Assembly: GCA_051532055.1 (NCBI GenBank)
Contig: JAOPTX010000032.1
Location: 125,115-189,114 of the forward strand
Direction: 5' to 3'
Origin: Fibrobacterales bacterium
GTDB taxonomy: Bacteria > Fibrobacterota > Fibrobacteria > Fibrobacterales > JAOPTW01
DNA length: 64,000 nucleotides
A program made the translations under genes and the position numbers. The notes below the pieces were generated by a model. That model saw only the letters and a program-made list of their open reading frames with translations, had not been told where the DNA came from and searched no databases. Positions 18,636-23,013 of the stretch are shown here, piece by piece (position 1 is the first letter of the stretch; each line of letters begins with the position of its first letter).

Positions 18636-19241
18636 TTACTCAGTTAGTTTTATATGGTGTATAAAGGTATCAACTTTAGTGACACCATCCAACTCACCAG
18701 TCTTAAGATATTCAACTAATTTAAAACGCATACTCTCTTCTGCTTCTACAGTAGATGCTCCTTCAGCTCGAATATTAAGGTCAGGGCAGTACTGATAACA
18801 TCTATTTTGTGAAATCCACGAAAGGGTCATCACCTCTACATTTTCAAGTTCAACTTCAACAAAATGAGGTTTCTTAATATGACGTGCTACTCGCTCTCTC
18901 AGCTCTGCCGAACTAATAAGCTTTGAAATAGACTCATTAGCACCCACTTTCATTGCTCGATAGGCTAGATTATTATTCAAATTGGAGCTTTGAAACAGTA
19001 TCGGAGTATCAATATAAGGCTCTATTGCTCGTACATGCCTGATAAAGTCTATTCCAGTTCCATCAAACAAACTATAATCGACAATAAAACAATTCACTGG
19101 AGGCTTATGGGCAATAAGCTCTAGCGCCTCATCAAGAGAGGCGGCAAAAGTTATATCAACAGAGTCACCCAAAATTTTTTTCAAAATCTTTTGAGCAATT
19201 TTACTGTCTTCAAGATGAAATATTTTTACGCCGTTAGCCAT
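18636..19241 (-). CDS. Response regulator: receiver domain plus C-terminal HicB-like domain
   Basis: Receiver motifs LEDS, IVDYSL.DGTG and GAN..ISK. C-terminal YCPDLNIRAEGASTVEAEESMRFKLVEYL. Confidence 0.75.
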   Translation of the reverse strand: MANGVKIFHLEDSKIAQKILKKILGDSVDITFAASLDEALELIAHKPPVNCFIVDYSLFDGTGIDFIRHVRAIEPYIDTPILFQSSNLNNNLAYRAMKVGANESISKLISSAELRERVARHIKKPHFVEVELENVEVMTLSWISQNRCYQYCPDLNIRAEGASTVEAEESMRFKLVEYLKTGELDGVTKVDTFIHHIKLTE

Positions 19242-19330
19242 ATCAGACCCCAAATGTCATACGTTGTTAGTATACCACATTTTAAAAATTTGACGAGACT
19301 TTTTTAGAAGTTCAAGCACTTACTTTCGGA

Positions 19331-21682
19331 TTATATTCCGAGTTTTAGGCCCGCATAGATCCCAAACCATCGATAGTGATCATGAGTACCCACTCGAGAG
19401 TTCAAGTAGAGATCTCCCACTGGAGATATCAAAGGATCAACATCCCTTTCAGTTATAAGCAGATTTAATGAAACCCCAGTAAACAAACTTATATAGGGCC
19501 CAAACTTAATACCCATCCCACTTTTTAATCGAAAGAGGTTATTAAAGTCGCTCCAACTCATCGCTTCTTCTTCCTCTTCTGGAGGATTAAATATTGCATT
19601 CCACCCAAAATCAGTTTCACTATAAAACCCTCCAAAATCATGACGATACCCATAACCCATTCCAATAAGAACGACATTCTTATTGGATGTTATTTTTTCC
19701 GCAGCAGTAAAAGTGGTATACAGCTTTTTGCCTCCGGTGGCAAGTGTAATCAATTCTAACCCGGTCTCATCGACCCAAATATTACCATTAAGTCGTCCAT
19801 TTTTTGAATAATTGATTAACCCAATAGGATAATCACAAGAGTCTGAAATATTGATAAGTCCAATTTGTACACCTCCAACATCACCTGCTACGTTAAGGAT
19901 TGATGTAACCTGATGATCAGATACATCATCTGCAATGTTTATAGCACCTGCAACCTGAGTTCCCACAACCTTATCTGAAGCATTCATAAAACCAGCAGCC
20001 TGAAAACCTTCAACGGCATCTGAGACATTCATAAAACCCGCTGCTTGAAAACCTTCAACGGCATTTGAGACATTCATAAAACCTGCTGCTTGAAAGCCTT
20101 GGATAGGCTCCGAAACATTTATAAAACCTGCAGCCTGAAAACCGCTTATAGAGTCAGAGATATTAATAAATCCACTTCCCTGAAAACCTACAACAGTATC
20201 TGCAGCATTGATAAAGCCAGACATCTGAAAGCCCTCTAGATTCTCAGCAATGTTCACATAACCTGCAGCCTGAAAACCTGTTACTTTTCTTGCAAGATTA
20301 ACGACACCAGCTCCTTGAAAAAACTCAATATCATCTGCAATGTTAAAAACACCCCCTACCTGGATACCACCAATGTACCCCTTGTTAATATTACCTATAG
20401 CAGCGATTGATGACTCAGAAATACCACCATACGTCTCTGTAACACCAAAGTTTAGTAAAGTACCATTAAAGGGCTCATCATATCTTTTATGAAAATAGAC
20501 CGTTTTAGTTGCTCGCTGCTCTAAAAATTGAGGTATTGTATCTCGAGTATCCCGTATCATAATAGTGTCATGAGTAACAACGGTGTCAACATCTGTGAGA
20601 TTTGCTACTGCCCCTTCATTAGTAAGTGATACCGCACCACCTCGACTCACCGTTTGTTCTTGTTCGACTGTAGTAAAATCTCTACCATTCACAACAATTC
20701 GTTTTCTGTATGGAATCACCACACTACTTTTTTTAAAGCGGTTATGTGCCTCAAGGCTTATACTATATTCACCAGGCTCGAGCCCCAGTTCAATACTTCT
20801 CCCACCTTGTTTACTCAACTCAGCTATAAGATACCCTTCACTATTGCGAACAAAAAGTCTGCCCGCTATATTTTCACCAAGTAAAAGCCCCGATGAAATT
20901 TCACGTACATCAGTAAAAACAACATCGCCGGTACCCGTGAGCTTCATATCATAATTAGCATGCTGTGCTCCACCACTTGTCTTCTCTGTGTTTGACAATG
21001 TCTCATTAAAGGCAAATTGGTACGCTTCACTCAACGTTACTTTTTTGTCTCCACTGATATCAGCCGCCCCTCTGAGCCCCGTTACGAGATAATGAGTAAA
21101 AAAAGAGCCACTAATCCTATCAGACTCCTGAGAAACTTCATCTCCGGCACTCGATGTGATAAAAGCATATCCTTTCATATCCGATGACTCATCAACTAAA
21201 AATGCCTTTCGACGAAGGCCTCCTTTAAAACGAGTAATGGTCCCCGAAGCACATGCGTCAAGCACCGCGATTTTGATATCTGAGCGCATCTCATTGATTT
21301 TAGATCGAAGCTCTTTATACCCGAGAAGCTCTTCACCGAGTAATAGCCCTTTGTCATTAGCATGTCCAGAATAGTAGAGTATCAATTCACTTTTTTGTCC
21401 TACACTTTTCACCTTGTCGATCTGACGATTTAATGAATCAAGTATGGTCAATAATTCAATACGTGTCGGTTCTTTTATAAGCTGTTGATCACTCTGTAAC
21501 ACACCACCCATCTGTTTCATAACACTTAAAAACGAAACAGCATCAGTTGTTGCATACCGCAAAGGAACTCGCCCTTCACCACCAAAATTTGACCCAATCG
21601 CAAGGGCAAAACGGCGAATCTCTTTTGATTCACCGATTGTTGCAAGTACTAGAAATACTAAAAAACAGAGTACTTTATTCAT
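19331..21682 (-). CDS. Exported caspase-family (peptidase C14) protein with 15-aa GxQ repeats and a C-terminal beta-barrel-like region
   Basis: Signal peptide; LRYATTDA; catalytic YYSGHA and LDACASG; SQESD...GSFFTHYL. GGAGG RBS before ATG 21682. Confidence 0.88.
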   Translation of the reverse strand: MNKVLCFLVFLVLATIGESKEIRRFALAIGSNFGGEGRVPLRYATTDAVSFLSVMKQMGGVLQSDQQLIKEPTRIELLTILDSLNRQIDKVKSVGQKSELILYYSGHANDKGLLLGEELLGYKELRSKINEMRSDIKIAVLDACASGTITRFKGGLRRKAFLVDESSDMKGYAFITSSAGDEVSQESDRISGSFFTHYLVTGLRGAADISGDKKVTLSEAYQFAFNETLSNTEKTSGGAQHANYDMKLTGTGDVVFTDVREISSGLLLGENIAGRLFVRNSEGYLIAELSKQGGRSIELGLEPGEYSISLEAHNRFKKSSVVIPYRKRIVVNGRDFTTVEQEQTVSRGGAVSLTNEGAVANLTDVDTVVTHDTIMIRDTRDTIPQFLEQRATKTVYFHKRYDEPFNGTLLNFGVTETYGGISESSIAAIGNINKGYIGGIQVGGVFNIADDIEFFQGAGVVNLARKVTGFQAAGYVNIAENLEGFQMSGFINAADTVVGFQGSGFINISDSISGFQAAGFINVSEPIQGFQAAGFMNVSNAVEGFQAAGFMNVSDAVEGFQAAGFMNASDKVVGTQVAGAINIADDVSDHQVTSILNVAGDVGGVQIGLINISDSCDYPIGLINYSKNGRLNGNIWVDETGLELITLATGGKKLYTTFTAAEKITSNKNVVLIGMGYGYRHDFGGFYSETDFGWNAIFNPPEEEEEAMSWSDFNNLFRLKSGMGIKFGPYISLFTGVSLNLLITERDVDPLISPVGDLYLNSRVGTHDHYRWFGIYAGLKLGI
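19850..20375 (-). repeat. Intragenic 45-bp (15-aa) tandem repeats, consensus VEGFQAAGFxNVSDx, about 11-12 copies
   Basis: Near-identical 45-bp units are visible at 19981-20115; copies degenerate toward both ends. Confidence 0.85.
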
Positions 21683-22487
21683 TACCTCCACCTTTCATAA
21701 TTGTTGTCGTATATTGAAAAAATCGCTTATCAAGACTCAAAAAGCCATTCTCTGGCGGTGGTGCACCATCTTTTTTTAACGCATCCTTTATTATCTTAAC
21801 GTTAAAGGCCTCTTTGGCCGTTATAAAATAGAATCGTTCATACCGTGGCGCATCATCAAGTTCATAAGAAAAAGAGAGCGGAGTTTTAGTATTCAATATT
21901 AGTGACGCCGCATCCTCCCCCTCAATTGGTAAGTGTATTGTCACAACGCCGTTTCCATCAACGGAGGCAATCACCCCATACTTTCGATCGGTTGAGATAT
22001 AATGTATTTGAATAAGGTCACCTTGAGTAGCGCTCCCTCCATCTTCTATATAAACTGTTGCATCACTATGTTTTTTATAGAGTTCTAAATAAGGACCTAG
22101 TCCTTTGGTGCGAAGACCATCATTACCGGCATTAAAGTATACCACAACAACTGAAACTAAAATCACCATAGAAAGGACAGAAAATAGCTTTGTTATCCCC
22201 CCCCCCGATGATACCGCCACTTCAGCCTCTTGGCTTTCTTCCGCAGAAGAACCATCCGACAGGGTAACCGATTCAATTCCTGCTTTTTGTTTCACCTGGC
22301 GCAATACCCAATCTGGAGAATACTCCTCTGCAATAGAGACATCAGACTCTAACACCGCAGCTAAACGTTCACTCAAGGCGCTGTCATACTCAAGACGATC
22401 AGTGATTGCCCGTAATTCTACTTCTGGGAGTTCTCCCAACACATACCGTTCAAGCTTCCAATGTGGCACTATCTCTTCTCTCTTCAT
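21675..22487 (-). CDS. Membrane-anchored anti-sigma-like protein (ActD-like) with a C-terminal DUF4384-like domain
   Basis: N-terminal LERYVLGEL helix, single TM (LFSVLSMVILVSVVVVYF), RTKG, then GDLIQI.Y...YGVIASVDGNGVVT.H and LDDAPRYERF. Overlaps both neighbours. Confidence 0.75.
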   Translation of the reverse strand: MKREEIVPHWKLERYVLGELPEVELRAITDRLEYDSALSERLAAVLESDVSIAEEYSPDWVLRQVKQKAGIESVTLSDGSSAEESQEAEVAVSSGGGITKLFSVLSMVILVSVVVVYFNAGNDGLRTKGLGPYLELYKKHSDATVYIEDGGSATQGDLIQIHYISTDRKYGVIASVDGNGVVTIHLPIEGEDAASLILNTKTPLSFSYELDDAPRYERFYFITAKEAFNVKIIKDALKKDGAPPPENGFLSLDKRFFQYTTTIMKGGGNE

Positions 22488-22975
22488 ACAAGTACCTCCC
22501 GTAGCTCATTCACGCTCTCTTTCAGAAGTCGCAGTCGCTTGCGCACCCCTGAGACAGACATTTTAACCTCACCCGCAACCTCTTCGAGGGTCATACCATC
22601 AACATAGTGCAGTACTGCAATAGTTCTCGTTGACTCAGGCCCTCTTTGAAATATTTTATCAAGGAGCGAACGTTGTTCCAAAATTTTCTCATCATCAACA
22701 CAGGCTATCATCTCAACAATTTCATCGCCAATAGCTTCGGGTCGTTTTTTATTATCACGAATTCTATTCAAGCAAAGATTGGTCGCAATACGATAGAGTA
22801 GACTTGAAGGGAATTCAATAGATAGGTTTTCCCGTTTACGAATTACTTGTACAAATACATTCTGCATAATATCCATCGCCTCGTGCTCATCTTTGAGCAA
22901 TTGTTGACACCGGCGCAACACCATTGCCCCATATCGCTTATACAGCGCCTCTATATCAACTTTTTGCTCACTCAT
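22484..22975 (-). CDS. ECF RNA polymerase sigma-70 factor
   Basis: Region 2 (EAMDIMQNVF, LYRIATNLCLNRIR) and region 4 (DGMTLEEVA...SVSGVRKRL); 163 aa. Confidence 0.92.
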   Translation of the reverse strand: MSEQKVDIEALYKRYGAMVLRRCQQLLKDEHEAMDIMQNVFVQVIRKRENLSIEFPSSLLYRIATNLCLNRIRDNKKRPEAIGDEIVEMIACVDDEKILEQRSLLDKIFQRGPESTRTIAVLHYVDGMTLEEVAGEVKMSVSGVRKRLRLLKESVNELREVLV

Positions 22976-22986
22976 TCTATCCTTTA

Positions 22987-23013
22987 GACACGGCTATTCT
23001 GCAGAAGTGTTAC
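22987..23013 (-). promoter_or_regulatory. Candidate autoregulatory ECF promoter GTAAC-N16-CGT
   Basis: Minus strand reads GTAAC acttctgcagaatagc CGTGTC taaaggataga ATG, matching the common ECF AAC/CGT architecture. Confidence 0.5.

Follow-up and report, generated by a model that had tools for sequence, protein, structure and literature searches.

The 64,000-nucleotide stretch of DNA analysed here (the window), from a Fibrobacterales bacterium (assembly GCA_051532055.1, contig JAOPTX010000032.1, positions 125,115 to 189,114 of the forward strand), carries on its minus strand four closely packed genes that encode a sigma factor of the extracytoplasmic function (ECF) type, a predicted anti-sigma factor, a caspase-domain protein and a response-regulator receiver protein. 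The sigma factor (163 residues; 22484..22975, on the minus strand like all features of the window given below) has sigma-2 and sigma-4 regions and is recognised by Pfam Sigma70_r2 (2.6e-13) and by NCBIfam TIGR02937 (70.7 bits against a cut-off of 42.9). It is followed by a single-pass protein of 270 residues belonging to an ActD-like family (21675..22487), and by an exported protein of 786 residues (19331..21691) whose residues 26-211 match the Peptidase_C14 family of clan CD (PF00656, E 4.1e-10, 40.2 bits against a gathering cut-off of 21.4). The last two open reading frames overlap by 17 nucleotides and are separate, so the protease is not fused to the anti-sigma as it is in DdvA; their translations are KIAVLDACASGTITRFKGGLRRKAF (caspase, 19331-21691) and YFNAGNDGLRTKGLGPYLE (anti-sigma, 21675-22487). 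The subject of this analysis is a Lys-Gly motif present in both proteins, which may be a cleavage site of the caspase.

A first-pass annotation of this DNA had pointed to an Arg-x-Lys-Gly motif shared by the two proteins, and the residues and coordinates it gave are exact. In the caspase, RFKG (R154-F155-K156-G157; 21221..21232) lies in the loop just behind the catalytic Cys, 7-10 residues after Cys147, and is the proposed self-processing site, with K156 as P1. In the anti-sigma, RTKG (R126-T127-K128-G129; 22101..22112) lies just outside the transmembrane (TM) helix, 8-11 residues after its end; a site-1 cut is proposed here, with K128 at P1. The frequency of R-x-K-G in open reading frames of at least 200 residues of the same genome is 1.6e-4 per residue, which corresponds to chance expectations of ~0.13 for the caspase and ~0.04 for the anti-sigma. 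One such pair alone would mean little, and it is the conservation in relatives that lifts the motif above chance.

The genome contains seven copies of the sigma/anti-sigma/caspase module, with the same gene order in all seven. Across its seven anti-sigmas, which are 15-32% identical, the invariant columns are the start Met and K128 only, and in its seven caspases K156 and G157 are invariant along with H110, D145 and C147. These modules were combined with 61 loci fetched from other genomes of the phylum, leaving out the redundant or partial loci L008-L011, to give a phylum set of 68 anti-sigma and 65 caspase sequences. K128 is the sole invariant column among the 68 anti-sigmas (13-81% identity), where G129 is found in 66 and R126 in 56; in the caspases K156 is kept in 64/65, the remaining sequence having Arg, and G157 in all 65. 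A profile search with the anti-sigma against 1.84 billion cluster representatives returned 11,382 relatives at E ≤ 0.001. Among the 150 best-scoring of these, each representing its own 50%-identity cluster, Lys is present in 150, Gly in 148 and Arg in 138; they form the least redundant sample, because about half of all loci come from the genus Fibrobacter. Further anti-sigma homologues have Lys-Gly in 101 of 102, the exception being a fragment.

Pooling the phylum set with the multi-phylum loci described below, after dropping identical sequences and rows cut at the site, gave logos for both positions. In the caspase loop (n=140), P4 is Thr in 119, P3 Arg in 136, P1 Lys in 139 and Arg in 1, P1' Gly in 139 and P2' Gly in 136. 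In the anti-sigma (n=131), P4 is Thr in 53, P3 Arg in 119, P2 Ile, Leu or Val in 106, P1 Lys in all 131 and P1' Gly in 129. The motif is thus retained at both positions across homologues instead of being lost at one of them. Its definition as RxKG stands in part: the Lys-Gly core holds, and the Arg is not invariant, being lost in a subfamily of anti-sigmas (12/131). In these alignments the invariant core of the motif is Lys-Gly, with Lys as the likely P1.

A related SRGG, noticed between the caspase half and the repeat half of the protease (S349-R350-G351-G352; 20636..20647), is real and corresponds to a conserved Thr-x-x-Arg-Gly at the edge of the C-terminal half. A [KR]-G is present in this boundary window in 136/136 sequences; the search took the first such pair close to where the Ig-like domain ends, so the P1' Gly is fixed by the search. 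In the resulting logo (n=136), P6 is Glu in 108, P4 Thr in 107 and P1 Arg in 123 or Lys in 13. Common to the three sites are therefore P4 Thr (107/136 at the boundary, 119/140 in the caspase loop and 53/131 in the anti-sigma), a basic P1 and Gly at P1'.

Structure predictions place the two Lys-Gly motifs at comparable sites. The AlphaFold2 (AF2) model of the caspase has a predicted local distance difference test (pLDDT) score of 91, and its sole segment of at least three residues with pLDDT <50 is the loop 157-169 (21185..21223), which begins immediately after K156 and connects the short helix that follows Cys147 to the next strand. In animal caspases the inter-subunit loop is cut ~12 residues after the catalytic Cys, a position to which that of K156 corresponds. 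In the anti-sigma the low-confidence segment (119-128, pLDDT <50) runs from the TM helix to the folded domain and K128 is its last residue. Both motifs are thus modelled in flexible periplasmic linkers, and the active site of the caspase and all three basic-Gly sites face the periplasm. The caspase loop contains a conserved GG, then basic residues and then PAF[LM].D.SS; its extra Arg and Lys residues (RRK in the window) could allow several cuts, as in the linker of Arabidopsis metacaspase 4 (AtMC4), or could belong to a binding segment. A complex prediction of caspase residues 24-350 with anti-sigma residues 119-270, both supplied as alignments, scored 0.00 against a mark of 0.32 and is counted neither for nor against binding.

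The protease itself is organised as a signal peptide, a caspase domain, an Ig-like domain, 15-residue repeats and a C-terminal domain. Its model has the caspase/hemoglobinase fold: the best Foldseek match is the caspase-Ig3 unit of MALT1 (E 1.7e-9), with further matches to legumain, caspase-3/7 and metacaspase 9 at E ~1e-8 to 1e-9. By sequence, the best matches among solved structures are metacaspases, namely AtMC4 (E 3.1e-7) and Yca1. The catalytic His110 lies in an SGH motif (21362..21364) that aligns to the SGH of AtMC4 and Yca1 and whose residues S108, G109 and H110 are invariant in the 65 caspases of the phylum set. The catalytic Cys147 lies in a DAC motif (21251..21253) aligned to the DSC of AtMC4, where C147 and D145, the S1-pocket Asp, are likewise 65/65. 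E189 is also found in 65/65. The NCBIfam model NF047832 (caspase, EACC1-associated type) gives 50.2 bits against a cut-off of 140, and the protein is not filed there.

In AtMC4, the pocket that holds Lys225 is formed by Ser84, Asp137, Ser350 and Asp352 (PMC7206013). An HMMER alignment equates S108, H110, D145 and C147 of the caspase with Ser84, His86, Asp137 and Cys139 of AtMC4, and the correspondence on the p10 side (S187-Q-E189 with Ser350-x-Asp352) comes from a manual alignment to the residues named in that paper. The acidic S1 pocket expected for metacaspase-type specificity is therefore present, with S108, D145 and E189 each invariant. As the residues lining the Lys pocket of AtMC4 match, the sequence indicates that the caspase is very probably specific for Arg or Lys at P1.

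Assignment of the middle protein as an anti-sigma is based on its position, its architecture and a weak NCBIfam match (NF052375, E 0.0035, 17.4 bits, below the cut-off of 100); no Pfam family was matched. The AF2 model (pLDDT 83) has four N-terminal helices (9-68), a TM helix (99-119) and a periplasmic β-sandwich from residue 133. In the sequence the TM helix spans residues 98-118, ITKLF...VVYF (22134..22196), and is followed by a DUF4384-like β-sandwich (residues 129-270; 21678..22103) with pLDDT >90 across most of 131-265. Foldseek against the PDB found no match to the model at E ≤ 0.001, returning generic β-sandwiches only. DUF4384 (PF14326) matches 34 of the 68 homologues weakly at E ≤ 0.05 (best 1.2e-5), with no match in the anti-sigma of the window itself, and a precomputed PF14326 is attached to two distant homologues. 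The sources of some homologues give them the label ActD or ActD-like. The model and context suggest that the protein is the anti-sigma of the ECF sigma factor, to which it is predicted to bind.

The association of the genes extends well beyond this genome. Within the phylum, the anti-sigma and the caspase are each found in 222/296 genomes, tallies that include one genome flagged as unpublished (G253) whose sequences were not used, and copy numbers match from genome to genome, for example 7/7 and 6/6. In 65 of the 68 loci of the phylum set, the gene directly downstream of the anti-sigma is the caspase. A multi-phylum locus search based on a 13-sequence alignment scanned species-representative genomes with the patterns A[VI][LVM]DACASG and D[GK][KR]VTLxEAY, neither of which includes the motif. 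It yielded 79 loci in Fibrobacterota, Latescibacterota, Gemmatimonadota, Myxococcota and Acidobacteriota, and in 77 of them the gene directly upstream of the caspase encodes an anti-sigma homologue. A sigma gene is present in the locus in 139/145 cases and strictly adjacent in 125/145.

Some loci depart from this layout or vary it. The six further modules of the own genome (C32:45999-48949, C110:7559-10359, C16:116812-119822, C16:23058-25904, C16:85448-88491 and C42:56408-59391) fall into two subtypes, with either long, repeat-containing caspases or caspases of ~520-600 residues ending in ...F, and the downstream genes differ in each. In one genus of the same family (L014 in genome G096, L016 and L073 in genome G103), a convergent helicase-like gene comes after the sigma/anti-sigma pair. 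Locus L147 of Myxococcus sp. CA023, and also L127 and L135, encode a sigma-54 activator, a GNAT/epimerase-like protein, an ActD-like protein with RIKG and a caspase, an arrangement that we take to resemble the act operon of Myxococcus. If such a locus is the act operon, its anti-sigma-like protein may work without a cognate ECF sigma factor.

Taken together, these features can be read as a trans-envelope switch in which the Lys-Gly motif would be the cleavage site of the caspase, used both to activate itself and to cut the anti-sigma at site 1, a reading to which we give slightly less than even odds (roughly 45%). The single-pass anti-sigma would hold the ECF sigma factor at the inner membrane. 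The caspase would act in the periplasm as a metacaspase-like cysteine protease with cleavage after basic residues, and its C-terminal half would hold it in place, probably at the outer membrane. Cleavage would take place at the conserved Thr/x-Arg-x-Lys↓Gly, with Lys at P1 and Gly at P1'. A cut after K156 in the flexible loop would turn the zymogen into an active enzyme, probably in trans by a second copy, and a cut after K128 in the juxtamembrane linker would strip the periplasmic DUF4384-like domain from the anti-sigma. The remaining stub would then be open to the site-2 protease RseP, the sigma factor would be released, and it would drive transcription of its own operon through the promoter GTAACAC-N15-GTGTC. 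A third cut at Thr-x-x-Arg↓Gly (R350) may free the caspase-Ig unit from its anchor. We infer all of the proteolytic steps, the sequence in which events occur, the signal and the anchoring in the outer membrane. A gene for an RseP-type Peptidase_M50 is present in the genome (G000:C15:139644-140897, E 3.8e-64, above the cut-off); it is a weak discriminator, because the family was matched in all 14 control genomes too. A bolder version, in which a single code, Thr-x-x-[Lys/Arg]↓Gly, runs the whole device in at least five phyla, from self-activation and anchor release to site-1 cleavage by an outer-membrane-tethered metacaspase-like protease, is more tentative and on balance unlikely.

Several observations weigh against the proposed double cleavage. 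The loci are heavily weighted to the genus Fibrobacter. K156 stands 9 residues from Cys147, compared with the 86 residues that separate Lys225 from Cys139 in AtMC4 (PMC7206013). The loop after K156 is itself conserved (GG...PAF.VD) despite its predicted disorder, and a structural or active-site role may therefore explain the conservation of Lys-Gly alone. In the anti-sigma the distance from the TM helix to the Lys ranges over ~9-45 residues (median ~23, by a crude hydropathy estimate); Lys-Gly keeps its place at the beginning of the folded domain and lies at no set distance from the membrane, so it could be a domain cap. Linkage also has exceptions. Two Fibrimonadales caspase loci have no anti-sigma upstream, and three Myxococcus/Pyxidicoccus loci have an anti-sigma-like gene and a caspase with no ECF sigma gene upstream. 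In the genus with the helicase-like gene (L014, L016) the anti-sigma and the caspase are unlinked, yet the anti-sigma keeps R[IV]KG; one of its genomes (G103) has a caspase on another contig without a sigma pair (L073), and the other, which is 60% complete, has a weak caspase match only.

Co-variation of the motif between the partners, which the first-pass annotation had looked to as a check, turned out to be weak. Both partners have P3 Arg in 114 of 128 pairs, and in 10/128, a further point against, it is absent from the anti-sigma and kept in the caspase. Nine of these discordant pairs come from a subfamily of DACESG caspases and one from a type A locus (L042). In the DACESG subfamily the anti-sigma has x-[Ala/Ser]-Lys-Gly, the third site is Tyr-x-Lys-Gly-[Gly/Ser] and the caspase has Leu at P4; judged from the alignment, this joint switch in nine related sequences may be a single event. 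As the sequences are kin and the sole joint change is a switch at the level of the subfamily, co-variation of P3 Arg was rejected as statistical support.

The resting form of AtMC4, in which Lys225 plugs the active site before calcium is present (PMC7206013), invites an explanation by substrate mimicry without self-activation, in which just one copy of the motif is a genuine substrate. The Lys of the caspase loop would then be a pseudosubstrate that keeps its own enzyme silent from within the S1 pocket, or the anti-sigma motif would dock the caspase as a bait or inhibitor without being cut, and control would run from the anti-sigma to the protease and not the other way. The Thr-Arg-x-Lys-Gly common to both motifs would suit this, as would the conservation of a loop downstream of K156 that is predicted to be disordered, which is what a segment that binds somewhere would display. 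Insertion in cis is geometrically doubtful for a Lys only 9 residues from Cys147, and the same Lys of AtMC4 is also cleaved (PMC7206013), which makes mimicry and cleavage compatible; we regard mimicry without self-activation as unlikely. If the two motifs are instead unrelated structural elements, Lys-Gly-Gly of the caspase would be part of an active-site loop and Lys-Gly of the anti-sigma would cap the first strand of the DUF4384-like domain, with a convergent or coincidental resemblance and an anti-sigma controlled by other means such as ligand binding or partner switching. Strands often begin with a conserved Gly that follows a basic residue, the anti-sigma motif is placed relative to the folded domain and not to the membrane, and P3 Arg does not co-vary between the partners. 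Set against these points, K128 is the single invariant residue of a family at 13-33% identity and lies in a segment with pLDDT <50, it is unusual for an Arg and a Lys to be conserved on the periplasmic side so close to the membrane, the three sites have P4 Thr, a basic P1 and P1' Gly in common, and the neighbouring enzyme has a pocket for exactly such a P1; coincidence is to our mind less probable still.

The genomes in which the genes are unlinked are also what would be expected if the Lys-Gly of the anti-sigma were cut by a different periplasmic protease of the DegS/DegP or Prc type, with the caspase serving another role such as the processing of sigma-controlled envelope proteins; to our knowledge, the characterised site-1 proteases of anti-sigma factors are all serine or metalloproteases. 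Such a division of labour would leave unexplained why the same motif stands in the linker of the caspase itself and at its domain boundary, as well as the near-perfect adjacency, the equal genome counts and the matching family tallies, and it appears the least probable of these explanations. Cleavage of both proteins by the caspase at Lys-Gly has the advantage of a precise prediction: the scissile bonds would be K128-G129, K156-G157 and R350-G351, the enzyme would act through Cys147, and the pocket residues are named, which makes the mechanism testable.

The operon may be under the control of its own sigma factor. A promoter-like dyad, GTAACAC-N15-GTGTC (22987..23013), lies 11 nucleotides before the sigma start codon. 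A dyad of the form G[TG][AG]ACAC-N-GTGT is found in 98 of 121 non-identical regions upstream of sigma genes from several phyla, 36-75 nucleotides before the start, and across loci (L038-L153) it takes the form GTAACAC or GTGACAC, ~15 nucleotides and GTGT[TC]. The best dyad is present in 67/121 real upstream sequences and in at most 10/121 shuffled ones. This pattern suggests that the dyad is an ECF promoter through which the sigma factor auto-regulates its operon. A scan of the whole own genome gave 8 matches where ~6.5 are expected from composition, with no excess, so a regulon cannot be called from it.

Locus L008 (C7:142199-143228, minus strand, of the own genome) encodes an exported protein of 323 residues that is homologous only to the C-terminal 265 residues of the caspase (E 1.8e-24), and the C-terminal domain therefore exists alone too. 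The gene has the dyad GTGACACT-N-AGTGTC 31 nucleotides before its start, and its product may belong to the regulon. Another good copy, the third, lies at C3:46664-46690 ahead of a gene for an NAD(P)-binding-like protein of 245 residues.

Downstream of its caspase domain, the protease has an Ig-like β domain (residues 246-345; 20657..20956), with AF2 strands at 246-342, and the model resembles the caspase-Ig3 architecture of MALT1. The C-terminal half (19334..20635) consists of a linker, ~7 repeats of 15 residues (GFQ..GF.N, ~20000-20278 as positioned from the sequence) and a terminal domain; no Pfam family was matched in it, and an Atlas search led to unnamed clusters only. When flanking repeats are included, tandem copies of GFQaaGF.N..... 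number ~7-10 and occupy caspase residues ~430-600. No Pfam or NCBIfam family covers the repeats, which probably form a β-solenoid between the Ig-like and terminal domains. The shorter caspase paralogues end in an aromatic ...F, like outer-membrane barrels, and on such sequence features the C-terminal half probably anchors the caspase in the outer membrane.

The response-regulator receiver gene (18636..19253; Pfam Response_reg, 9.9e-14) is directly 3' of the caspase gene, and the C-terminal part of its product, ~75 residues, has no family assignment. No such gene is found downstream of any of the six paralogous modules in the own genome. The protein is adjacent to the sigma/anti-sigma/caspase module, as a neighbour and at most a candidate member.

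ECF sigma/anti-sigma pairs are among the commonest signalling devices of bacteria, and for few of them has the activating protease been named. The anti-sigma family described here is large, and its members carry labels no more specific than 'hypothetical' or 'ActD'. If the proposed cleavage occurs, the caspase would be the first cysteine protease to act at site 1 of an ECF anti-sigma, and bacterial metacaspase-like proteins would gain a defined signalling role instead of the usual label of 'programmed cell death'. ActD of the Myxococcus act operon would, as a member of the family, acquire a possible biochemical mechanism for control of developmental timing by that operon.

In the regulated intramembrane proteolysis of ECF anti-sigmas (RseA/DegS/RseP and RsiW/PrsW/RasP), DegS is a serine and PrsW a metalloprotease, and neither has a motif-sharing logic. 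The present module resembles these systems in its ECF sigma factor, its single-pass anti-sigma with a periplasmic domain, the proposed site-1 cut near the membrane and the RseP-type protease of the genome. It differs in that the proposed site-1 enzyme is an operon-encoded cysteine protease of clan CD with the same motif in its own linker. It is plausible that the module carries out regulated proteolysis of an ECF anti-sigma by an operon-encoded metacaspase-like enzyme with a self-similar cleavage code. In the main texts of the open-access literature, no account was found of a motif common to the two proteins, of the pattern of three sites or of a separate site-1 protease of the C14 family, and the main text of the ECF reclassification paper PMC7826278 contains no occurrence of caspase, Fibrobacter, C14 or DUF4384.

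The linkage of sigma factors and metacaspases in operons has been known since 2012, when sigma-70 factors were reported in four metacaspase operons of Myxococcus xanthus and the same operon structure in Anaeromyxobacter, Haliangium, Sorangium, Ralstonia and Fibrobacter (Asplund-Samuelsson et al. 2012, PMC3501461). That linkage is the same as here; in its passages on these operons, the 2012 account includes no anti-sigma, motif, cleavage model or topology (PMC3501461). AtMC4 (PDB 6W8S) conserves the Ser-Gly-His and Asp-x-Cys residues of the pocket and dyad, and Lys225 in its linker is both the plug of the active site and the first self-cleavage site (PMC7206013). It differs in a linker of ~150 residues, in its dependence on calcium and in its cytosolic location (PMC7206013). 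In the enzyme described here the linker has ~25 residues, the Lys follows 9 residues after the Cys, and the protein is exported.

The MALT1 paracaspase prefers substrates in which Gly follows Arg. Its caspase-Ig3 unit (PDB 8V4X, 3UO8) likewise has a caspase domain followed by an Ig-like domain. MALT1 differs as a eukaryotic cytosolic scaffold protein with 12% sequence identity, and membership is not claimed.

Prokaryotic caspase-like proteases that are linked to CRISPR and act on a sigma module reportedly include Craspase Csx29. The SAVED-CHAT, PCaspase and PCc-sigma system of Haliangium is described as cytoplasmic and CRISPR-associated, with caspase-like proteolysis of sigma-related proteins (bioRxiv 10.1101/2023.06.23.546230). 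The likeness lies in a prokaryotic caspase-fold protease that cleavage activates and that goes on to cut a sigma-related protein encoded close by, whereas those systems are cytoplasmic, nucleotide- or RNA-triggered defence and the present one is periplasmic, with an ordinary ECF/anti-sigma pair (bioRxiv 10.1101/2023.06.23.546230).

Myxococcus xanthus offers two further comparisons. ActD of its act operon is connected to the family by the homologues labelled ActD or ActD-like, and the loci of the L147 type differ from the window in having no upstream ECF sigma factor; in the open-access papers on ActD, mention goes no further than the actABCD operon. The DdvA-DdvS pair also ties a periplasmic caspase-fold protease to an ECF anti-sigma, with a TPR-CHAT protease that has an incomplete active site and is fused to the anti-sigma (PMC11506125, PMC6061681). 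For DdvA, whose anti-sigma is fused to the CHAT domain, caspase-like proteolysis before RseP has been proposed (PMC11506125), and the passages on DdvA in these papers describe no shared cleavage motif (PMC11506125, PMC6061681). In the window the protease is instead a Peptidase_C14 protein in its own right, whose His/Cys dyad is intact and which probably has its own membrane-distal anchor; if it acts as proposed, an idea put forward in the DdvA work only for a fused protein (PMC11506125) would extend to a separate, intact C14 enzyme.

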